The notes: generated from the letters alone by a model not told the origin. A stretch of 8,710 nucleotides of DNA from a bacterium (GCA_037444445.1 JBBIMK010000048.1:1-8710); one strand, 5' to 3'. Shown: positions 1 to 8,710, counted from the first letter of the stretch. Program-made: numbers and translations.

Positions 1-47
1 AGGAGAGAAGTGATCTCACCTATACCGGATTCATTGAGATTTGTAAT

Positions 48-266
48 CTATCCTTCCGGGTATCGGGTGGGGGTTAAGGAGCCGAGGGCTTCTTTGAGCA
101 GGCGAACGGCACCCGCGGGGTGAGGCGAAGCCAGCACGCCAGAAATCACCGCCACCGCATCCACACCCGTCTCCCATACGATTTTCACATTCCTCGGCGT
201 GATGCCGCCAATGGCCACCACCGGGATTTTCAACACCCGCTTCGCCGACCGGGTCATATTTTGCAA
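48..266 (-). pseudogene. Orphan 3'-terminal fragment of a thiamine-phosphate synthase gene (about the last 60 codons only)
   Basis: The translation ...KIPVVAIGGITPRNVKIVWETGVDAVAVISGVLASPHPAGAVRLLKEALGSLTPTR is identical to the C-terminus of the full-length thiE ORF at 1269..1916. No N-terminal or catalytic part is present. The apparent start is a fortuitous TTG. The fragment reads 4 codons further (YPEG) because the homology ends inside the stop codon. Confidence 0.85.
61..252. repeat. Direct repeat copy A (partner at 1270..1461)
   Basis: Base-by-base comparison shows 61..237 identical to 1270..1446 (177 bp, offset 1209). The next 15 bp match at 12/15 (mismatches at 238, 240, 246). Beyond that the sequences are unrelated. 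The left flanks (1..60 vs 1210..1269) are also unrelated. Confidence 0.95.
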
Positions 267-293
267 GTAGCCAGCGAGGAGTTATCCAGAATT

Positions 294-309
294 GAGCGAC
301 GGTTCGCTC
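294..309 (-). terminator. Weak hairpin downstream of the small ORF (possible cassette terminator)
   Basis: GAGCGA-cggt-TCGCTC forms a 6-bp stem with a 4-nt loop. On the minus strand it is followed by AATTCT, which is not a real U-tract. A T6 run lies about 20 nt upstream of the hairpin on the minus strand (plus-strand aaaaaa at 330-335). It is not a canonical intrinsic terminator. Confidence 0.2.
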
Positions 310-374
310 CAGGTATTTGAAAAAAGATTCGCTGGGCAGGTGAGAATATGGATTTCATCTCCCATTACCATTTG

Positions 375-605
375 TCAGTTTTCAGCGTGTTTGCGAAGAT
401 TTTCCCGTAGTCGCCGAATCATCTTATCCCGGATTGGCTTAAATACCTCGCCTAATTCTGCCAGTTCGCCAACAATCTTCATTTTCTTGGCGACTGGAAG
501 CCGTGCCATCCGAATTCGCCATCGCCTTTTCTGTTCAAAAATTTCCTGGAGAAGGTCTCCCTTAGAAATCGGGGAATTCCGCTTTGAATTTTTTCCAGAG
601 TCCAT
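375..605 (-). CDS. Small (76 aa), very basic, predicted-helical protein of unknown function; second gene of the insert
   Basis: The ATG at 605 is preceded on the minus strand by AAGGAGGTG, a near-perfect SD about 10-12 nt upstream. That SD lies inside the 3' end of the upstream gene. The ORF overlaps the upstream gene by 44 nt in another frame. It is K/R-rich and its C-terminus is RRLRENLRKHAEN. I recognise no family by eye. Confidence 0.55.
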   Translation of the reverse strand: MDSGKNSKRNSPISKGDLLQEIFEQKRRWRIRMARLPVAKKMKIVGELAELGEVFKPIRDKMIRRLRENLRKHAEN

Positions 606-1089
606 GCCGCACCAACACCTCCTTCAATCTCTTGACCTGGATAGGAATCTGTTGGTTAAAGAACTTCTCTATGCGAGCCCAGTCCATACGCCTGCCGCAT
701 TCTACGGACATGGCTATCAAATACTCCGGGGAAATAACCCTGCATGGAACATCGTTATATTTATCCTCCAGAGCATTTTCTATGGCTTCCTCTACCAGTT
801 CGGTGCCGGCGGGAATGAAATCTACCAAAACATCTTCCATCAGCGCCCTCCAGCCCTGCATTTTATAGCCCCGAAGCCGGAGATACCGATAAACTGGTGC
901 CGGGTCTATCAACCCGTCGGGACCCTGTTTATAATGTGTGAAGATGTCCACATCTTTTGTGTAAAACGGTTCGATGTAAAACATGGCCCCGATAGAGCCC
1001 CCGATGGCATATTCTCCAATAATTCCCTCTCTTTTCATATCGTTAATGACCGAGAGAATTAGCCCCAGTTTTTCAAAAATATTCTTCAT
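562..1089 (-). CDS. Minimal nucleotidyltransferase-fold protein (Pol-beta-like NTase superfamily; DUF6036/AbiEii-like by eye), 175 aa
   Basis: Residues 30-48, IGGS-x13-DVD (AIGGSIGAMFYIEPFYTKDVDIF), fit the G[GS]-x9-13-D-x-[DE] NTase signature. A later VLVDFIP strand could supply the third carboxylate. The motif RVISPEYLIAMSVECGRRMDWARIE resembles the LIAMKL.AGR.KD..DI motif common in small stand-alone NTases. Family assignment is from memory and not searched. Confidence 0.7.
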   Translation of the reverse strand: MKNIFEKLGLILSVINDMKREGIIGEYAIGGSIGAMFYIEPFYTKDVDIFTHYKQGPDGLIDPAPVYRYLRLRGYKMQGWRALMEDVLVDFIPAGTELVEEAIENALEDKYNDVPCRVISPEYLIAMSVECGRRMDWARIEKFFNQQIPIQVKRLKEVLVRHGLWKKFKAEFPDF

Positions 1090-1143
1090 CCTTCAAGAGA
1101 AAAATCCGACAGCCATCCCGAGTTTGTAATTGTGTTCATCCTA

Positions 1144-1173
1144 TTTATACCACAAAATGGTCAAAAATGCAAA
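1144..1173 (-). promoter_or_regulatory. Candidate sigma70-type promoter of the insert (extended -10)
   Basis: The minus strand reads TTTGCA-N18-TATAAA, with TGG immediately 5' of the hexamer (TGnTATAAA). It lies about 55 nt upstream of the NTase ATG at 1089. Confidence 0.3.
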
Positions 1174-1268
1174 AGATGTTTTGCGGAGCCTCTGGTGTTT
1201 AGCGTCAACTTTTTTCTCCGAGTTTTCCAGGGCTTTTTGAGCGGCTCAAGGATTTCCTCAGGATAGTG

Positions 1269-1916
1269 TTATCGGGTGGGGGTTAAGGAGCCGAGGGCTT
1301 CTTTGAGCAGGCGAACGGCACCCGCGGGGTGAGGCGAAGCCAGCACGCCAGAAATCACCGCCACCGCATCCACACCCGTCTCCCATACGATTTTCACATT
1401 CCTCGGCGTGATGCCGCCAATGGCCACCACCGGGATTTTCAACACCTGTTTCGCAGACCGGAGGATGGAGAGGGAAATGACCGGCGCTTTCGGCTTGGTG
1501 GGGCTTTTGAAGCAGGCACCGAAAGCCACATAGTCGGCCCCTGCTTCCTCCATTTTTTTCGCCAGTTCTAAATTGCCGTGGCTGGAAACCCCGATGATGG
1601 CTTTATCCCCTAAGGCTTTTCGCAAAATCTCTATGGATGCATCCTCACTGCCCACATGAACGCCGTCGGCGCCTACTTCTTCCGCCAGCGTGGCATAGTT
1701 ATTGATGATGAAAGGAATTCCGTAATGGAGAGTCATCTCCCGCAATCGGCGAGCGACACGAACCCGCTCTTCATACCGCTCTGTCTCATCCCGATATTGA
1801 AAAACATCTACACCCGCCTTGAAGCACTCCTCCAGAATGCTAAAAAAGTGGGCTTTCCCGATATACCGCGCATCCGATACCAGATATAACCCTTTGATAG
1901 GAACCTTTCCTTCCAT
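1269..1916 (-). CDS. thiE: Thiamine-phosphate synthase (215 aa)
   Basis: Motifs typical of the ThiE TIM barrel are visible by eye: GLYLVSD, VFQYRDE, FIINN, GADGVHVGSED, IIGVSSH, GADYVAFGACFKSPTKP, PVVAIGGI, GVDAVAVISGV. I place the start at ATG 1916 (MEGKVPIKGLY...), with GGTGAG 4 nt upstream. The ORF-track extension to 2105 adds 63 codons that overlap the MFS gene's 3' end and is probably not translated. Confidence 0.9.
   Translation of the reverse strand: MEGKVPIKGLYLVSDARYIGKAHFFSILEECFKAGVDVFQYRDETERYEERVRVARRLREMTLHYGIPFIINNYATLAEEVGADGVHVGSEDASIEILRKALGDKAIIGVSSHGNLELAKKMEEAGADYVAFGACFKSPTKPKAPVISLSILRSAKQVLKIPVVAIGGITPRNVKIVWETGVDAVAVISGVLASPHPAGAVRLLKEALGSLTPTR
1270..1461. repeat. 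Direct repeat copy B (partner at 61..252), forming the 3' end of the intact thiE
   Basis: See copy A. The repeat edge at 1270 falls inside the thiE TAA stop (1269-1271). The last base of the stop codon is supplied by insert sequence. Confidence 0.95.
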
Positions 1917-1996
1917 CCCGCTCACCAACCCTATAGTATACAGAATATAGAAGACAGAATACAGGGGAAGGCAAAAGGGAATCCACTCACCATTTT

Positions 1997-3196
1997 CTAT
2001 TGGCCATCGGATGGACGCTCCGGCACCTTCAGAGGTAAAAGGGTGAGGAAAGCGAGAACCCCAAACAGAAACGTTAGGAGGAAGGGAGCCTGGCTTCCGA
2101 GCCACATTTTGAAGACCGTTCCTATCGCAGGACCCAGGAAGGATAGAAGCCCTGTGAGAGTGAGAAAGATGCCCACCACTCGTCCACGATGCGACCTCAT
2201 TGTCAGGTCGGAAAGTAGCACTCCGTGCATGCTCCAGATGAAAAGATTGAAAATGAAGGAAGCGATAAATAAGGCAGTGGCAACAAGGCTATCACCCGCA
2301 AAAGCCCAGAACCCTAAAAGGGCTGGATAAATCACCAGAGAAAGTTGCAGGAGTGAGCGGGCTTTCCATCTCTGTATCCACGGAAGGGCCAGAAGATTCA
2401 CCACCCCTGCAATCAGCCATCCACCAGCAAAAAACCGGTTGATTTCTCCCTCGCTCTTTGTCAGTTCATCCTTAAAGTGAAGGCTGATAAAGGGTCCATT
2501 GACGGTGAGAGAAAGCATAAAAAATATCAGGATAGAAGTCAGGAGAAATAAAAGAAGGGCTTTCTGACGGAATATGGATAGGAATACATCCCGAAAGGAT
2601 TCCGCAGGTTCACCAGAAGCTGTGTTTTCTGCCGGGGCGCCGGGAGAGGATAGCTCCACGAGAAGCCACTGACGGAAGATAGCCACAACGAGGGCTACCA
2701 CGGCAGTGATACCCATAAGCCAACGAATGCCGATTTCTTCCACAAAAACTGCACCCAGGTAAGACCCCACTCCCAGCCCCAGGGAAGCAAAGGCGTTCAG
2801 ATAGGTAAAAATCCTTTCGCGATTCTCAGAAGATTCTGCCATCAACGCCGTAAAAGCAGGACCCTGCAAAGAACCGGCAATATTTCCCCAGCAGAAGAAA
2901 AATGCTGCCATCCTCCAGTCGGGAATGAGCGCCATCAACCCGTAGATAACAGGATAAGCAAAAGTGGGAAGGACAATCATCCTCGCTCGCCCGAAGGTGT
3001 CTGTGAGAATTCCCCCGAGAAAACTGGTAACATAGAAAGCGAGGAAGAAAAAGGAGTAAGCCACGCCCACTTCATAATCGCTTGCTCCCAGTTCCTTCAG
3101 ATAAATAGGGAATACATTGAGCCAGGTAAAAGTTGCCACCAGCAAGAAAAATAAAGTAGCCGAAAGGACAAGTATATTCCGATGAACTTGCACCAT
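1997..3196 (-). CDS. Major facilitator superfamily transporter (399 aa), substrate unknown
   Basis: About 12 hydrophobic segments are visible. An MFS motif-A-like GGILTDTFGRARM follows the second segment. I place the start at ATG 3196 (MVQVHRNILVL...). The 20 extra codons in the ORF track run through the promoter-like region. Confidence 0.85.
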   Translation of the reverse strand: MVQVHRNILVLSATLFFLLVATFTWLNVFPIYLKELGASDYEVGVAYSFFFLAFYVTSFLGGILTDTFGRARMIVLPTFAYPVIYGLMALIPDWRMAAFFFCWGNIAGSLQGPAFTALMAESSENRERIFTYLNAFASLGLGVGSYLGAVFVEEIGIRWLMGITAVVALVVAIFRQWLLVELSSPGAPAENTASGEPAESFRDVFLSIFRQKALLLFLLTSILIFFMLSLTVNGPFISLHFKDELTKSEGEINRFFAGGWLIAGVVNLLALPWIQRWKARSLLQLSLVIYPALLGFWAFAGDSLVATALFIASFIFNLFIWSMHGVLLSDLTMRSHRGRVVGIFLTLTGLLSFLGPAIGTVFKMWLGSQAPFLLTFLFGVLAFLTLLPLKVPERPSDGQ

Positions 3197-3203
3197 TCTT
3201 TTA

Positions 3204-3209
3204 ATTATA
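3204..3209 (-). promoter_or_regulatory. Perfect TATAAT -10 box exactly 7 nt upstream of the MFS ATG (leaderless-mRNA candidate)
   Basis: The minus strand reads CTGTATAAT-TAAAAGA-ATG. There is no SD between the box and the ATG, and I found no convincing -35. Confidence 0.35.
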
Positions 3210-3341
3210 CAGAAAATCCACCCGTGGAGAATAGACAATTCCCCTGTGATTTCCAACGGCGTAGTTTTTGCCGCACTCGGAAGAGAAGCCTGTTCATTTG
3301 CTGTAAAATGGGTAAGGGATGAGGGAGGAGAAAAGGACTCA

Positions 3342-4175
3342 ATGGTAAAGAGAAAGCGATTGACTCGCAGGGAGTTTTTGGTAGGGGTTGGGCTTGCCGC
3401 AGGAGCGGTTTATTCTACTGCGATAGAGCCTTATCTGCCTCGGTTGGAACGCATTCGTGTTTCCATCCCTAACCTGCCACAGGAGTTTCATGGGTTTCAG
3501 ATTCTCCAGTTTACGGATATTCACCGGGGACCTTATGTAAGTGAGGAAAAAATCATTCACGGGTTTGAGTTGGTCAAGGGTGAGAACCCTGCTCTTTTGG
3601 TGTTAACAGGTGATTATGTCACTTTCTATGCAAAAAATGCCGATTTCGTAGCAAAGGAAATCCGTCAGCGTTTCCATCCGCCCTTTGGGATTTTTGCCGT
3701 CTACGGGAATCACGAATACTGGAGCGATGTGAAGACTGTGACGACGGCTTTTCAGAAATATGACCTTCCAATTCTGGTGAATGAGCATCGTAGAATACAA
3801 AAGGATGGGGCGGAGATATATCTGCTGGGTGTAGATGATGTGTGGGAAGGAAAGCCTTCTGTGGAAAAAGCCTGTGAGGGTGTTCCATCGGATGCCGTGA
3901 AAATCCTCTTATGCCACGAGCCCGATTATGCGGATATTGCCAGAGAATATAGCATCGTCCTTCAACTCTCCGGGCATTCACACGGCGGGCAAATCCGAGT
4001 TCCCTTCACAAAAATTGCTTACTATCCATATCTGGCTCGGAAATATCCGGTTGGCTTGCAGAGAGTGGAGAATAGCCAGATGTGGGTTTATACCTCCCGT
4101 GGGATGGGGAACGGGTTGCCTGTTCGTTTCGCCTGCCCTCCTGAAATTACTGTGATTACTCTGAGTTCAGTTTAG
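3342..4175 (+). CDS. Tat-signal metallophosphoesterase, calcineurin-like (YkuE/YaeI-like), 277 aa
   Basis: All metallophosphoesterase motifs are present: FTDIHRG (DxH), LTGDYV (GD), YGNHEY (GNHE), LLCHEPD (H) and GHSHGGQ (GHxH). The N-terminus MVKRKRLTRREFLVGVGLAAGAV carries a twin-arginine motif. A GGGAGGAG SD lies about 13 nt upstream of ATG 3342, and a TAAAAT -10-like hexamer is at 3304-3309. Confidence 0.85.
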   Translation: MVKRKRLTRREFLVGVGLAAGAVYSTAIEPYLPRLERIRVSIPNLPQEFHGFQILQFTDIHRGPYVSEEKIIHGFELVKGENPALLVLTGDYVTFYAKNADFVAKEIRQRFHPPFGIFAVYGNHEYWSDVKTVTTAFQKYDLPILVNEHRRIQKDGAEIYLLGVDDVWEGKPSVEKACEGVPSDAVKILLCHEPDYADIAREYSIVLQLSGHSHGGQIRVPFTKIAYYPYLARKYPVGLQRVENSQMWVYTSRGMGNGLPVRFACPPEITVITLSSV

Positions 4176-5321
4176 AAGCCTTTCGGCGAGGAAGGCACCT
4201 TCCACCATACGACAGAGTTTTTCATAAGCCACCTCCCAGGTTCGTGTGCGTAATCCACAATCGGTGCACACGAGAATCTTTTCCGGGTCGCCGAGGATAG
4301 AAACGGCATACAAAATCCGATCCCGCACTAACTCTGCAGGCTCTAAAAAATCGGTGTGTATATCAATCACTCCCAGCCCGATTCTGGCTTTCACCTGATG
4401 CTCCCGGAAAAGTTTTAGAATCGTATATCCGGGGCGCTGGGCTTCCTTCGTCCCGTGCTCTATGCTGTCGTAATTAGCAAAGCCTATGGCATAAGCGTAG
4501 GGGCCTCCGTTTTCCACCTGCCCGATGTGGGGGAAAAGAAGCCGATAATCGCTGAAGCAGATGTGGACGGTGAATCGGGTATGATGGTTCAGCCCAACCG
4601 TGGATTGATGGAATGCCTCCAGAAACCAGGGAACTTCCTCAGGACGGGTAGTGACTGCTGGCTCGTCTATTTGTATCCATTTTGCTCCTGCCTCTACCAG
4701 CGCCTTCAGGTTCGGGCGAATGACCTCTCTCGCCATGGCGGTTAAAAAAAGCCTCCTGGCTTCCTTTTGCCCCTGTACATCCCAGGGCAAAACCTCTCTG
4801 GAAAAATACTCATCATAAGACCAGTCCACGAGAGTATAGGCACCAGTGATAGGAATTTTCACCGGCTTACTTGCCCACTGAATGATTTCCAGAAACTCTT
4901 TCAGATGATAAGGCCGGGTAAGCTCAGGATAGCTCCGACAAACTCCTTTTCGGTAGTATTTATGCTCAAAGGAACGCACATACCCGGTGAGTTCCATGCC
5001 CTGGATGTGACGAATGGGATATTCATACATTTCCGTGCGGAACTGCTCACCATCATAAACCAGGTCCAGCCCGGCCTTTTCCAGGAGCCGAACAGCAAAT
5101 CTGGATGACCAGCGAATCACTTCTTGCTTCTGTTCCGCATTCAGCGGTGATTTTTGAGCGGTTTTCAGGAGGTCCAGTAAAGGTTCTGCTGAGAGGCTCA
5201 ATTGATTTGCCCAGTGGAGAGCATCCTCGTAGTCTTGAGGAGAAAGCAGGCGGCCCGCTACCACTTTTACCCGCCAGTTGGGCTTTGCTAAAGAGCCGAT
5301 TTCATGCTTCAGAAATTTCAA
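4167..5321 (-). CDS. metE: Cobalamin-independent methionine synthase, catalytic (C-terminal-barrel-like, zinc-binding) subunit, 384 aa
   Basis: MetE C-domain motifs are visible by eye: DGEQFRTEMYEY (cf. GE.ER.DMVEYF), IQIDEPAV, VHICFSDY (HxC zinc ligands), GLGVIDIHTD (cf. GPGVYDIHSP) and CTDCGLRTR (cf. NPDCGLKTR). The start is TTG at 5321 and overlaps the upstream stop as TTGA. Confidence 0.85.
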   Translation of the reverse strand: MKFLKHEIGSLAKPNWRVKVVAGRLLSPQDYEDALHWANQLSLSAEPLLDLLKTAQKSPLNAEQKQEVIRWSSRFAVRLLEKAGLDLVYDGEQFRTEMYEYPIRHIQGMELTGYVRSFEHKYYRKGVCRSYPELTRPYHLKEFLEIIQWASKPVKIPITGAYTLVDWSYDEYFSREVLPWDVQGQKEARRLFLTAMAREVIRPNLKALVEAGAKWIQIDEPAVTTRPEEVPWFLEAFHQSTVGLNHHTRFTVHICFSDYRLLFPHIGQVENGGPYAYAIGFANYDSIEHGTKEAQRPGYTILKLFREHQVKARIGLGVIDIHTDFLEPAELVRDRILYAVSILGDPEKILVCTDCGLRTRTWEVAYEKLCRMVEGAFLAERLLN

Positions 5322-6280
5322 AACTTCTCTTTCACCTCTTTCAAAATTTGAACCTTTTTTAAGAAAACATCGTGAGGAAGAAACTGCGGGTCACCATTCA
5401 CCGAAAGGGTCAATTCTGTTGGCTTCCAGTGGCTGATTAGTTTCGTTAGATAACCCGTGAGCCAGTCCAATCTTTCCACCCGTGTGGAGTGAACATCCAG
5501 AATGCCCAGAAGCAGACGCATCTTTCCATTGTAAGGAATGCAGGATATTTCATCGGATGTCTGGTGGCAGGCATCCAGCCCCAGACCAAAGACTGGAAAT
5601 TCCAGGAGCCGGGGAAGCCAGGAGAGAATGGGGGTGAAGTAAGTGTGGAGGATGATGGGCAGAGATGTGGTTTGAGCCATCTCCTGGAAGCCCTTCTGTA
5701 AAGATTTCAAGAGGATAGAATTCGCTGCCACATTGCCTAAAAATGGCTCCTGAAATTGAATCAGCACGCAATTCTGTAATGAAGTGAGAGCCTGTAAAAT
5801 TTCACCCAGTAGATAGGAGCATTCAGAAATGAGAAAATCTAAAGGATGGTGAGATTCATCTTGAATGGAGGAAGCAAAGTAAAAAGGAGAAGGGAAAATC
5901 ACTTTGTAAGGCTCGGTAACAGGAACCTCCACATAGGAGCGAATCCATTGATTCAGGGAATTCCGTTTCAGGGCGAGGGAGCCCGTGCGAACAGGAGCCC
6001 GGTAAAAGGTATTGGTTCGGGGAAACCGAACGAGGGGTCCTGCCGTGAGATTTGCCACGATTTCCGTGAATGGACGAAAATAATCCAGCCAGTTTAACAT
6101 CGGTGAAGTCAGAGGGCTGAAATGTAATTCTTTTTGCAGGGCAAGATAAGATTGGAAGAGTTCGGCTTCTGCCTGTAAAGGGACCGAAATGGCACAGCGC
6201 CCCCGTTCATATTCCTGCCAGGCTTTTGCCAGGACAGTTGAGTGAGGAAAAATCCCGTGGAGGCTGATGGATAGGTTCAT
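5318..6280 (-). CDS. MetE N-terminal-barrel-like protein (non-catalytic paralogue lacking the HxC...C zinc ligands), 320 aa
   Basis: I aligned it by eye to the E. coli MetE N-domain recalled from memory: GIFPHS/GFPRVG, RTNTFYRAPV/NTNYHYMVPE, IQFQEPFL/VQIDEPAL, ILHTYFTPI/LLTTYFEGV, GILDVHSTRVERL/GLINGRNVWRADL. There is no Cys at the position of the catalytic CGL motif (SVNGDPQF). It has an ATGA overlap with the upstream gene and a TTGA overlap with the downstream gene. Confidence 0.6.
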   Translation of the reverse strand: MNLSISLHGIFPHSTVLAKAWQEYERGRCAISVPLQAEAELFQSYLALQKELHFSPLTSPMLNWLDYFRPFTEIVANLTAGPLVRFPRTNTFYRAPVRTGSLALKRNSLNQWIRSYVEVPVTEPYKVIFPSPFYFASSIQDESHHPLDFLISECSYLLGEILQALTSLQNCVLIQFQEPFLGNVAANSILLKSLQKGFQEMAQTTSLPIILHTYFTPILSWLPRLLEFPVFGLGLDACHQTSDEISCIPYNGKMRLLLGILDVHSTRVERLDWLTGYLTKLISHWKPTELTLSVNGDPQFLPHDVFLKKVQILKEVKEKF

Positions 6281-7296
6281 GGCTGATTTGAAAAATAAGG
6301 ATGGTGCCTTGCCACGACCAGAAGCCTGCGGGTCAATTCGGCTGAAATGCCCAGATTATAAGTCATCACATGTTCTACATTCAGCCCAATGGGGATGGAA
6401 ATACCTGTGGAATAGACCCAGTCCAGGATGCCCCGCAAAAGAGTTTCCGCATATTGAATAGAGCGTTCCTCAGTCAGAGCAGGGTTCTCCAGCAGGTAGT
6501 CAGCCGTGCCATCGGAAATTTCCACTCCAAGCCAGCGCATAAATTGAAGGTCCTTTTCCCTGGTTAAGGGAGCGAAACTGAGGAAAATTCGCCGGGGTGA
6601 GACCTTCTTCTGCTGACAGAGGCGGGAAAAATCCATCAGCAATCGGCACACAGAGGAGGGCTCAAACAGGATTTGGGAAGTAAAAAAGGACACCCCACCT
6701 TTCATCTTGCTGAGCAGGCGATACGGCTCGTCCCGGGCTGGGTCAGTGTGCCGGCGAGTGGGAATGGTGATTCCTCCTGTGATATGAGGGATATGGAAAT
6801 GTCTTAAAAGACGAGCACTCTCGGAAACTGAGGGCCCCGGATAGCGAATCCGGCTGGATTCTCCCCCCACGAATAGAAAAGAGTAAATGCTGAATTCCCG
6901 ATGAGTTCGCCAGAGCCACTTTTCCAAAGTCGGTCTGGGGGAACGGACAACCACCCGGTTCACGATGGTGTCAGGAGGAAGGCAATGGATTTTTCGGTAT
7001 GCTCTTCTTAAAACCCTCGCGTAAGTTCGGGGAGGAATTTTCGGTGTATACCGGGTAACCCGTGGCTCGTTTCGGGCTTCATTGAGAACCTCTGGTATGT
7101 TGAGAGCATTCAGCGGAAGGCGGTGAAGGGTGTTCGCCGCACTTCGGGCATGCTGATAGACTTTCTCCAATGTAAAGTGAAGAGGGGGTGGAATGATAGT
7201 AAAAATGGTGGCAACATTATCAGGCTTCTGAACAGCCTCACAAAATCTCTTAAAGGCTAATTCAGCCTCTTTCATCACCCGGATTTCTTTGACCAT
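6277..7296 (-). CDS. Divergent methylenetetrahydrofolate reductase (MTHFR/MetF)-like protein, 339 aa (or 332 aa if the start is ATG 7275)
   Basis: By-eye matches to MetF are FTIIPPP (cf. FEFFPP), LFVGGES (cf. ALRGD), GGVSFFTSQILFE (cf. GANRAITQFFFD), IFLSFAPLT (cf. IIPGILPV) and a C-terminal TYN (cf. FYTLN). It heads a translationally coupled operon with the two MetE-like genes. Confidence 0.6.
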   Translation of the reverse strand: MVKEIRVMKEAELAFKRFCEAVQKPDNVATIFTIIPPPLHFTLEKVYQHARSAANTLHRLPLNALNIPEVLNEARNEPRVTRYTPKIPPRTYARVLRRAYRKIHCLPPDTIVNRVVVRSPRPTLEKWLWRTHREFSIYSFLFVGGESSRIRYPGPSVSESARLLRHFHIPHITGGITIPTRRHTDPARDEPYRLLSKMKGGVSFFTSQILFEPSSVCRLLMDFSRLCQQKKVSPRRIFLSFAPLTREKDLQFMRWLGVEISDGTADYLLENPALTEERSIQYAETLLRGILDWVYSTGISIPIGLNVEHVMTYNLGISAELTRRLLVVARHHPYFSNQP

Positions 7297-7299
7297 CGT

Positions 7300-7330
7300 A
7301 TTATACGATAGCAGGATTTACCGGGTAAAT
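7300..7330 (-). promoter_or_regulatory. Promoter of the methionine operon with an overlapping 7-1-7 palindrome (operator candidate)
   Basis: The minus strand reads TTTACC-N18-TATAAT (a perfect -10 at 7300..7305). The palindrome ATTTACC-g-GGTAAAT (7316..7330) covers the -35 and part of the spacer. The -10 ends only 3 nt from ATG 7296. Confidence 0.4.
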
Positions 7331-7404
7331 CAACCGATGATGGTGGATTCTAACTACAGATGAAGTCCCGATGATTTCGGAGCAGTCTACCAATCCGCGG
7401 TGAT

Positions 7405-8502
7405 TTAGTAGAAGAAGTGGAGAACGGTCATGCCCTCCCACTTCTCCCCGGAGGGGGAATCCGTGTTGTTTCGCACCATCAGGAGGACCTCCGTGAAAGA
7501 AATTGGGAAGATGGCTGTGCCGAAACTCCAGCGGTGGCGGTCGGGTGTTGTGTTCAGCTCCGGTTCAAACCGGTCATACTGCAAAATCCAGTGCCAGCCC
7601 AGTTTCTGTAAATACCGCCATTCGGTGTGAGAAACGATGTCGTCATGGTTGGTTTGAACCCACTCGGAGATGAGTGAGACTTTGCCGGAATGGAGTCCAG
7701 CGAAACCCGCAAGCCAATTCCCCTTTTGCTGGCTTCCCGTGTTTTTGAAATAGGAAGCGCCCGCCATCCATTTTGGCTGAAAATGGGTGTAAGAGGCGGT
7801 GACCGCTTTCCCAATATTCTGGTCAAACTGCCCCGTCCCACCGTTGGTGACGCTGAGGCTGAATAAATGGTTCCGTGCCCCATAGCCTGCCTCCAGCCCC
7901 GTGTCCCGATAAAACTGCGTGAAAGGTGTGAATGGAGTGGGAGGAGCGTCCGAACCGCTCTCCACATAGCCCCGGGTGTAAGAGTTGTGGTCATCCCACC
8001 GAACACCAAAATTGGGCACAAATCGCCCCATTTTCACATAGGTGCCTTCCCCGAAAAGGTCCCGGATAATCGCCAGAGAATCAAAATTCCCAAACTGCCC
8101 TCGTGAGAACAGAAAGTCCATCTTCAAGGATTTTCCTTCCAGGTGGAAATTGGCATAGAGATTCCCCTGCATATCAAAGAAGGTATTCTTCACACCCTGA
8201 TAGCGTTTGGATTCGGCTACATAATACAGTAAGCGATGGTCTACGCCGAAGGAGATGTTCTCGTTGAGGTCAGGGGAGGCTTCTTCAAAAATTTTCTTCA
8301 AAGGCAGTTTGGATTGAGCGAACTCAAAACCGCGACCGGTTCGCATACCGCCACCTGTGGGATTGATATGACAGCCGGCACAGGACACGCCTCGCACCGA
8401 CGAAAATACAGGCAGGGCGGGGCTTTCTTTCGTCCACATCAGAAGGAGAGCCACCACCAGGCTCCCCACCCAAACTGCCTTTCTTCCCCTCAGAAATCTC
8501 AT
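7405..8502 (-). CDS. Outer-membrane beta-barrel protein with an N-terminal single CXXCH haem-binding motif (Cyc2-like fused cytochrome-porin candidate), 365 aa
   Basis: The signal peptide is MRFLRGRKAVWVGSLVVALLLMWTKESPA. CAGCH (nt 8368..8382) lies about 10 residues into the mature protein and is followed by INPTGGG. The remainder is rich in alternating aromatic/G/N/S/T strands (GLEAGYGARNHLFSLSVTNGG, AVTASYTHF, AGASYFKN, WHWILQYDRF) and ends in ...MTVLHFFY, a typical OMP C-terminal aromatic signature. The start at ATG 8502 is supported by an AAGGGGGGGG SD and the promoter at 8534..8542. Confidence 0.7.
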   Translation of the reverse strand: MRFLRGRKAVWVGSLVVALLLMWTKESPALPVFSSVRGVSCAGCHINPTGGGMRTGRGFEFAQSKLPLKKIFEEASPDLNENISFGVDHRLLYYVAESKRYQGVKNTFFDMQGNLYANFHLEGKSLKMDFLFSRGQFGNFDSLAIIRDLFGEGTYVKMGRFVPNFGVRWDDHNSYTRGYVESGSDAPPTPFTPFTQFYRDTGLEAGYGARNHLFSLSVTNGGTGQFDQNIGKAVTASYTHFQPKWMAGASYFKNTGSQQKGNWLAGFAGLHSGKVSLISEWVQTNHDDIVSHTEWRYLQKLGWHWILQYDRFEPELNTTPDRHRWSFGTAIFPISFTEVLLMVRNNTDSPSGEKWEGMTVLHFFY

Positions 8503-8533
8503 TTTTGAGCCCCCCCTTCTTTTTTCGCTTACA

Positions 8534-8542
8534 ATTATATCA
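8534..8542 (-). promoter_or_regulatory. Extended -10 promoter (TGATATAAT) of the cytochrome-porin gene
   Basis: The minus strand reads TGATATAAT, a perfect TGnTATAAT, 31 nt upstream of ATG 8502. It lies downstream of the ORF-track start at 8556, which argues against that longer ORF. Confidence 0.45.
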
Positions 8543-8669
8543 TCTTCAAACCTCAATCCCTTTTTAATCTGTTTTGCAAGGTCTTAAAAGGAAGAAGAAA
8601 ACCTGTCATCAAACGGGACGGCGTCCCGCCAGCATGCCGTGCGGAGCAAAGTAATGTCATTCTGAGCGA

Positions 8670-8705
8670 AGCGGAAGTCCCGATAAAAGCCATCGGGTTC
8701 CCGCT
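8670..8705. other. Nested imperfect hairpin at the window edge (intergenic structured element or repeat-like sequence)
   Basis: AGCGGAA (8670-8676) pairs with TTCC(C)GCT (8698-8705). An inner CCCGAT (8679-8684) pairs with ATCGGG (8692-8697) across a 7-nt loop. A second small hairpin, GGGAC-ggc-GTCCC, is at 8614-8626. Confidence 0.3.
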
Positions 8706-8710
8706 GCTTT

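Follow-up and report, generated by a model that had tools for sequence, protein, structure and literature searches.

How did two genes unrelated to thiamine metabolism come to lie between two copies of the end of thiE, on a contig where no recombinase was detected? The question is raised by an 8,710-bp bacterial contig (GCA_037444445.1 JBBIMK010000048.1:1-8710), which was analysed over its entire length and is called the window below. One copy of the repeated sequence (copy B) closes the intact thiE gene, encoding thiamine-phosphate synthase, the other (copy A) lies 60 bp from the contig end, and an insert of 1017 bp (253-1269) separates them. We consider it probable that a selfish cassette of about 1.0 kb, consisting of a putative MenT1-like toxin gene and the gene of a small helical partner, was inserted at the 3′ end of thiE with duplication of the last 177-192 bp of the gene and without a recombinase. 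Little is understood of how chromosomal toxin-antitoxin modules reach unrelated sites when neither a transposase nor an integrase is involved. The present locus offers a clean pair of occupied and empty sites, at 96% identity, with a perfect duplication of 177 bp that looks very recent.

To begin with, the repeat was defined. A first reading of the DNA, made from the sequence only, had described 61..237 as base-for-base identical to 1270..1446, with unrelated outer flanks, and both points were reproduced by computation. The 177 identical bases recur with a period of 1209 bp. Similarity extends further, to positions 252 and 1461, with mismatches at 238, 240 and 246, giving a repeat of 192 bp at 98% identity; outside of it, the flanks of copies A and B are unrelated. 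The 177/192-bp repeat is far beyond chance, because the window contains no other repeat longer than 30 nt. On the plus strand, copy A carries C at each of the three mismatched positions where copy B carries T, T and A. All three mismatches are confined to 15 bp at the insert-proximal repeat edge; were they placed at random, the chance of such clustering at a given end would be about 5e-4.

The site was then compared with its counterpart in relatives. An uninterrupted form was found in L099, a 4460-bp contig of the Logan assembly of run SRR11582170. This contig was reached through the 90%-identity cluster of the window thiE, of which its 219-aa thiE product, P0158, is a member, and it shows the same gene order (Meth_synt_2, Metallophos, MFS, thiE). 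L099 aligns without gaps to window positions 1270-5695 (4.4 kb) at 96.1% identity, and its last 216 bases match window positions 27-242 at 94.9%. Both copies of the repeat align to a single L099 segment, 4250-4426, at 94.9%. In the window, the junctions read ...CCCGATA|ACACTATCC and ...ATATGAC|CCGGTCGG, and the empty-site junction reads ...CCCGATA|CCCGGAAGG: in L099, ...CCCGATA continues directly into CCCGGAAGGATAG and then into the spacer seen at window positions 27-47. Because the same sequence follows thiE in L099, positions 27-60 of the window represent the native downstream flank of thiE. The 1209-bp unit, made of the insert and one copy of the repeat, is the sole structural difference between the two contigs. 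The empty site predicted from the window, with thiE running uninterrupted to ...TPTRYPEG, does exist, since P0158 ends ...SLTPARYPEG and its gene runs into the flank.

The cassette is also absent from L009 (JGI), a more distant syntenic relative whose ThiE protein is 85% identical in amino acid sequence. There, a convergent gene matching Pfam Amidase, ending ...AGEAR*, is found 60 bp after thiE. As two relatives at different distances lack the unit, the parsimonious polarity is an insertion in the lineage of the window.

The reverse order of events was also considered, in which the insertion predates the split from L099, both relatives have lost the unit by deletion, and gene conversion has kept the 177 bp identical. 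Recombination between the 177-bp repeats would indeed yield exactly the L099 sequence, and the edge with three mismatches in 15 bp could be the unconverted remnant of an older divergence. Against this, the unit is missing from two relatives at very different distances (96% nucleotide identity for one, 85% amino acid identity of ThiE for the other), no relative of the cassette protein exceeded 45% identity in the searches run, and the insert has a lower GC content than every host window. We therefore regard an old insertion as quite improbable. It would in any case shift the timing only; the duplication would still have arisen at an insertion.

The vicinity of the mismatches was also compared with L099. 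At two of the three positions, the orphan copy has the L099 state (AAG CGG, K-R) and copy B has AAA CAG (K-Q). A patch of thiE at the 5′ edge of the repeat (1437-1491) is hypervariable, with 16 single-nucleotide differences to L099 in 55 bp. More generally, divergence from L099 per 100-bp bin reaches 5-11% in the 3′ half of thiE; over the rest of the aligned 4.4 kb, most bins lie at 1-5%, with a maximum of 8%. A later mutation or import in copy B also fits the edge mismatches.

What did the insertion do to thiE? The intact gene (1269..1916, minus strand) encodes a protein of 215 aa with strong matches to Pfam TMP-TENI (4.4e-58) and TIGR00693 (1.6e-57). Its 3′ end is supplied by copy B (1270..1461, minus strand), as delimited by repeat search and pairwise comparison, and its stop codon TAA spans the repeat/insert junction at 1269-1271. 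The protein now ends ...TPTR*, four residues short of the uninterrupted 219-aa allele. The TMP-TENI match stops at residue 191, and the lost YPEG falls outside the domain. The orphan 3′ fragment (48..252, minus strand), recognised from the repeat, from Pfam and from the L099 tail, is composed of copy A (61-252) and of the native tail ...YPEG with its stop codon (48-60). In its open reading frame, the TMP-TENI match is confined to the final 40 positions of the profile; the frame terminates in ...TPTRYPEG*, with the same RYPEG* tail as the uninterrupted thiE of L099. The Pfam and TIGR00693 matches thus bear out the earlier assignment of copy B to the intact gene and of copy A to an orphan fragment. 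In the source record, this fragment (48-257) is annotated as a 69-aa protein, P0159 (MTRSAKRVLK...RYPEG). The duplication of the thiE end accounts for this orphan 'thiE-like' annotation, and P0159 is in all likelihood a pseudogene remnant, not a functional gene.

Because the arrangement is read from an assembly, we asked whether the assembler could have threaded together an uninterrupted thiE and a second molecule sharing the 177-bp segment, be it a circle of 1209 bp, its multimer or the locus of a different strain. Several features would be compatible with such an artefact: the contig is a single metagenome-assembled one and stops 60 bp after the second copy of the repeat; in the assembly graph, a repeat node entered by two paths and left by two looks alike whether the unit is integrated or an empty site coexists with a circle; a closely related empty-site strain exists, as L099 shows; and identity within the repeat may come from bubble popping during assembly. 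On the other hand, the junction 252|253 lies 15 bp outside the identical block. Since it carries copy-A-specific bases, the cassette is truly joined to a thiE 3′ segment, and the same holds for the junction 1269|1270. Even if the contig were threaded, the cassette would thus carry a thiE fragment. A 1.2-kb circle with no replication gene would be unlikely to gain assembly coverage by itself, and a like architecture is observed in contigs from separate projects and sources (JGI, ENA, NCBI, Logan). In our view, an artefact is therefore unlikely.

The insert itself was examined next. Together with one repeat copy, its 1017 bp make up the 1209-bp unit, and it holds two overlapping minus-strand genes, at 562-1089 and 375-605. 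That neither is related to thiamine metabolism, as had been claimed, is borne out by gene calls, Pfam and the fold match described below. The insert has 45.5% GC as compared to 49.6% for positions 1462-8710, and host windows of 1017 bp range from 46.3 to 52.7%. The insert had been described as markedly AT-rich, at 39-43% GC against 52-61% in neighbouring genes. The direction of this contrast is confirmed but its size is not, the actual gap being about 4 points; the figure of 61% inflated the contrast because the repeat itself has 63% GC.

The larger gene (562..1089, minus strand) encodes a 175-aa MenT1-like nucleotidyltransferase, a putative toxin according to AlphaFold2 modelling, Foldseek comparison and conserved motifs. 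This protein has one recorded source, an NCBI contig of 8710 bp. With its model (predicted local distance difference test score, pLDDT, 89), the best PDB matches in Foldseek were Mycobacterium tuberculosis MenT1 and the MenAT1 complex (8an5/8an4, E 1e-8, TMq 0.69-0.71), followed by aminoglycoside and lincosamide nucleotidyltransferases. Sequence identity to the MenT1 matches is only 18-20%. The motifs YAIGG and T-x-D-V-D are strongly conserved among 22 homologues, with A28, I29, G30, T44, D46, V47 and D48 invariant and Y27 and G31 conserved in at least 90% of them. The protein therefore displays the hG[GS] and acidic D-x-D catalytic motifs. Family searches were less informative. The match of the 175-aa protein to Pfam DUF2204 remained below threshold (17 bits for a cut-off of 20.3), and it had no match to Pfam DUF1814/AbiEii or in a PDB sequence profile search. 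NCBIfam, PADLOC and PHROGs gave no match for either cassette protein, and no nuclease domain or family was detected in the cassette.

The smaller gene (375..605, minus strand) overlaps the end of the nucleotidyltransferase gene and encodes a 76-aa protein. From its position and its AlphaFold2 model, a two-helix hairpin (pLDDT 88), this partner is a putative antitoxin; it has no Pfam, NCBIfam, PADLOC or PHROGs family. Of the 85 loci examined, 75 have a small overlapping open reading frame, screened for at 40-110 aa, downstream of the nucleotidyltransferase gene; the partners that could be aligned (55-76 aa) have an AKLP motif in common. The nucleotidyltransferase family comprises 2575 representatives at 50% identity, with E values up to 1e-3. 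The closest relatives of the cassette protein are 43% identical in the protein collection and 45% identical among the metagenome loci, with none above 45% in the searches run. Homologues are located between housekeeping genes or in defence neighbourhoods: after recA, after carB, between glycosyl hydrolase and ATP-synthase genes, or beside MmeI-type methyltransferases. Overall, fold, motifs and gene layout point to a cassette made of a putative MenT1-like toxin and a putative small helical antitoxin.

Two non-coding stretches, both read from the sequence, complete the insert. The spacer between the stop codon of the small gene and the orphan copy (253..374, minus strand) includes the insert/orphan junction 252|253; homology to thiE or to L099 was not found in it. 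On the other side, the upstream leader of the cassette (1090..1269, minus strand; GC 42.2%) includes the thiE/insert junction 1269|1270. The cassette had been credited with a promoter-like signal of its own. This was not upheld by a sigma-70 scan of positions 1-2100, which returned no promoter-like site; by eye, a sub-threshold TTGCAT (1172-1167)-17-TATAAA (1149-1144) can be discerned in the leader on the minus strand. The leader also contains a 13-bp palindrome, TTGAGC-G-GCTCAA (1237-1249), 20 bp from the thiE/insert junction, which could be an operator or a chance match. The tRNA and Rfam scans of the window were both empty.

No integrase, transposase or recombinase was detected in the insert or on the whole 8.7-kb contig by gene calls, Pfam, NCBIfam, PADLOC or PHROGs. 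The enzyme could nevertheless act in trans. The unit would then be the remnant or satellite of a site-specific element, comparable to a cis-mobilizable element, and the repeat would represent the attL and attR sites of a tyrosine or serine integrase encoded elsewhere, whether by a neighbour since lost or by an element integrating in tandem; the 1.2-kb unit would move only with that enzyme supplied from outside. Integrative elements that rebuild the 3′ ends of protein genes and att-flanked derivatives lacking an integrase are both established in reviews. Moreover, the window contig and L099 stop near each other 3′ of thiE, and a variable or repeated element located beyond could explain both breaks. 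Yet the 8.7-kb contig carries no integrase, and the bases that follow copy A are those that follow thiE in L099, showing that no second element abuts within the available sequence. In addition, related modules are bracketed by diverse host repeats of 20-192 bp, as described below, which would call for a separate trans-acting integrase at each site. The usual att core is also much shorter than a 177-bp block of perfect identity. An integrase acting in trans thus appears to be an improbable source of the repeat.

Three other origins were rejected. At the junctions, no attC core sites (RYYYAAC ... GTTRRRY) of an integron gene cassette are seen by eye, and the boundary repeat is thiE coding sequence. 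A diversity-generating retroelement does not fit, as there is no reverse transcriptase and neither copy has adenines at all three mismatches on either strand. A transposon target duplication was discarded in the absence of terminal inverted repeats and because 177-192 bp is far too long.

The flanks of homologous modules were surveyed. We fetched 80 metagenome loci of homologues, added those obtained earlier, and compared the upstream with the downstream flank of each module. With 300-bp flanks, a direct repeat above the maximum of 338 mismatched-pair controls was found in 12 of 57 non-redundant flank sets, the window included, whereas inverted repeats above the control maximum were found in none of the 57. 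In eight of the 12 positive sets, again counting the window, the repeat is unique host sequence. With 500-bp flanks, repeats were detected at 11 of 60 modules as compared to one of 148 shifted control positions in the same loci (Fisher p = 5e-6). When cases due to periodic arrays were removed, leaving only repeats of unique sequence, 7 of 60 modules remained (p = 8e-4). Each of the unique-sequence repeats occurs exactly twice in its locus and brackets the module at a spacing of 827-1242 bp. Many different host sequences are involved, with lengths of 20-192 bp. Judging from this survey, the flank-repeat architecture would recur among cassettes of the nucleotidyltransferase family.

The repeated host sequences are of various kinds. 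In L071, 99 bp of sequence downstream of carB are repeated at 95% identity, and in L043 about 85 bp, with one 8-bp indel, cover the ribosome-binding site and the first 14 codons of the downstream DUF3782 gene. Intergenic sequence is repeated in L019 (55 bp, 98%), an internal piece of recA near its 3′ end in L048 (46 bp, 96%), and the ...IDQMVYQLYGLTE region in the 3′ part of a methyltransferase gene in L012 (41 bp, 85%). For L019 and L071, whose contigs bear SPAdes names, a k-mer overlap artefact was considered and rejected, since the copies are inexact (98% and 95%) and lie 0.9-1.2 kb apart. Likewise, the repeat signals of L036, L058, L062, L065 and L080 were not retained as target duplications, because periodic arrays with units of 7 or 9 bp, lying between cassettes, give rise to them.

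One pair of loci bears directly on mobility. L036 and L043 have a 0.79-kb module in common, 95% identical, within unrelated flanks, and traces of the heptamer arrays surrounding the L036 copy persist in the L043 one. It follows that the module moves as a discrete unit, in L043 with a new local target duplication. The only match among the control positions was found in L084, where a 54-bp direct repeat (94%; about 1694-1747 and 3071-3124) lies 0.9 kb upstream of the nucleotidyltransferase module of that locus. Enclosed by this repeat are two further toxin-antitoxin-like pairs, one of them RelE/ParE-like (2539-2971), the other at 1823-2393. The sole control match of the survey is thus itself another toxin-antitoxin insertion.

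A separate organisation was noticed in several of the surveyed loci. In L062 (39-1880, 3164-3209), throughout L058, and in L036, L061, L065 and L080, successive small cassettes are separated by tandem arrays with units of 9 bp (AAACCAGAC-like) or 7 bp (CTCACGC/TTTACGC-like). The cassettes of L062 comprise a nucleotidyltransferase pair, a HicAB-like pair and an AAA_14/DUF4143 ATPase, and a conserved 46-bp element, ATTCCACCTTTTCACAATTTCGAAAAAGTGAACATGGACA, present four times in this locus, precedes each array. We could not place this array-of-cassettes organisation in any known family.

The surroundings of the insertion site call for a few remarks. The native spacer downstream of thiE occupies positions 14..47, of which the part from 27 on belongs to a segment (27-60) that aligns, with 2 mismatches, to the 34 L099 bases following the repeat-equivalent. 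These 34 bases to the left of the repeat show neither a third copy of it nor a tandem element. On the plus strand, positions 1..13 may hold the end (GEK*) of an amidase gene in convergent orientation, 2-13 reading GGA GAG AAG TGA; this weak call, made on 13 bases by likeness to the amidase end ...AGEAR* of L009, is suggestive at best. The window contig and the 4460-bp contig L099, two independent assemblies, have their ends no more than 26 bp apart in the spacer 3′ of thiE, and these paired ends hint that a repeat or a region varying between strains follows immediately. Away from thiE, gene content also differs from L009. The window and L099 have a metallophosphoesterase gene (3246-4175, plus strand) that L009 lacks, its MFS and Meth_synt_2 genes being separated by 74 bp; the corresponding indel spans window positions 3239-4142 and has no flanking repeat.

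How could the unit have been inserted? We envision three steps. In the first, as comparison with the two relatives shows, an empty site became occupied, with insertion and duplication occurring together. In the second, the cassette would have been joined to its target by one of three routes: (a) a single crossover with a circle that contained the cassette together with about 190 bp of thiE; (b) the entry of a linear donor, anchored by thiE homology, whose far end was joined illegitimately 192 bp upstream of the gene end; or (c) a staggered break or template switch by which the target was copied twice. The sequence-only reading had proposed an integration footprint left, in the manner of Campbell, by a single crossover and without a recombinase. 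The footprint and the lack of a recombinase stand, given the empty site in L099 and the gene content of the contig, whereas the single crossover becomes one of several routes to the same product. Route (a) alone could not account for the repeats of unrelated host sequences that related modules have acquired at new sites.

In the third step, host homologous recombination of the RecA type acting on the 177-bp perfect repeat would lead to deletion, to amplification or to a 1209-bp circle. Deletion between the repeats would restore the exact L099 sequence. Once freed, the unit would have a homology arm with which to re-enter thiE in conspecifics still lacking it, and toxin-antitoxin addiction would penalise its loss.

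Several observations weigh against insertion with target duplication as formulated above, or limit its reach. Firstly, the arrangement is carried by one contig of a metagenome-assembled genome, and a co-assembled empty-site strain could have contributed to the orphan's length and to its connection with the flank. Secondly, the mismatches at the repeat edge fit equally well a meeting of two alleles, a gene-conversion boundary or junction-associated synthesis. Thirdly, routes (a), (b) and (c) would give one and the same product, and the sequence does not tell them apart. Fourthly, in L012 and L048 the repeated piece ends 33 bp and 159 bp, respectively, upstream of the host gene stop. Because the host open reading frame continues after the upstream repeat, simple target duplication misfits these two loci unless deletion or divergence followed, and route (c) in its simple form misfits them for the same reason. 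Finally, the roles of toxin and antitoxin are predicted ones and remain putative: the gene order is reversed with respect to menA1-menT1, and DUF1814 is not matched.

These results lead to a broader proposal, which we offer as speculative and rather unlikely as it stands. Nucleotidyltransferase toxin-antitoxin cassettes, perhaps toxin-antitoxin modules generally, would be autonomous mobile units without a recombinase, whose movement makes long target duplications of variable length and whose duplicated host segment serves as a portable homology arm. If this were true, insertion with long target duplication would not be tied to DNA cutting by restriction enzymes, a point made testable by a unit of 1.2 kb. 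Excision, amplification and re-entry by host recombination would then amount to the 'virus-like life cycle' put forward for restriction-modification systems, here without a nuclease. Insertion with long target duplication would then characterise addiction modules as a whole, or a repair pathway of the host.

How does the locus compare with systems already described? With cis-mobilizable elements and their integrase-less derivatives, the unit shares its small size, its position at the 3′ end of a protein gene, its direct repeats and the lack of a recombinase of its own. It differs from them in that their att sites are short and used by a cognate integrase, whereas a repeat of 177-192 bp of host coding sequence is found here and no such element is visible. 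Campbell-type insertion-duplication has the same topology, with a homologous segment on both sides of heterologous DNA and the upstream gene intact. In contrast, no circle or donor is observed here, a prior event joining the cassette to a thiE fragment would be needed, and repeats of unrelated host sequence at new sites, as in L043 compared with L036, would be left unexplained.

As for the cargo, the nearest characterised system is MenAT1 (Rv0078B/Rv0078A), in which a nucleotidyltransferase toxin is neutralised by a 68-aa helical antitoxin (PMC10435456). The cassette shares with MenAT1 and the MenT/AbiEii proteins the fold (TM 0.69-0.71) and the G-G and T-x-D-x-D motifs, and with MenAT1 a small helical partner, here of 76 aa compared with 68 aa. 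It differs by its low identity (18-20%), the absence of DUF1814, a DUF2204 match below threshold and a nucleotidyltransferase gene that comes first. Nothing useful was found in the literature on DUF2204 or on toxin-antitoxin genes with flanking direct repeats. The literature searched, which was incomplete, yielded no description of the present architecture for toxin-antitoxin modules, and where checked the phrase 'insertion with long target duplication' stood in reference lists only.

The architecture itself has a closer counterpart. Insertion with long target duplication of restriction-modification gene complexes is said to have been described by Nobusato et al. in 2000 (Gene 259:99). Genome comparison described it for such complexes under that name (Furuta, Abe & Kobayashi 2010, PMC2853133). 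These restriction-modification units have no mobility genes and are flanked by repeats of 46-423 bp, each of which aligns to a single-copy target in a conspecific; the duplicated targets often overlap the 3′ end of a gene, and the insert differs slightly from the genome in its GC content (PMC2853133). Flanking repeats are commoner at restriction-modification systems than at average genes, and a cycle was proposed in which a unit inserts, is amplified by means of its repeats and is released (PMC2853133). A 1-kb unit with a long perfect repeat and no integrase, which had been called unusual at first sight, therefore has a precedent (PMC2853133). The same authors suggested that the process relies on a property common to restriction systems, for example double-strand breakage (PMC2853133). 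The window cassette, where no nuclease was detected, argues against a need for such a property.

We applied the definition used in that work, namely absence from a close relative with aligned flanks, repeats longer than 30 bp, an insert below 20 kb without mobility genes, and the presence of restriction-modification homologues (PMC2853133). The unit in the window is absent from a relative, has repeats longer than 30 bp that fall on a single-copy target, and remains below 20 kb without mobility genes. In place of restriction-modification homologues, its cargo is the MenT1-like nucleotidyltransferase and the small helical protein. Thus, the two have in common a small unit of addiction type, without transposase or integrase, absent from a relative and enclosed in long direct repeats, and they differ in that the cargo is here a nucleotidyltransferase toxin-antitoxin-like pair in which no nuclease is detected. 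Judged by its architecture, the locus would be a case of insertion with long target duplication, the closest known kind, from which it differs in its cargo.

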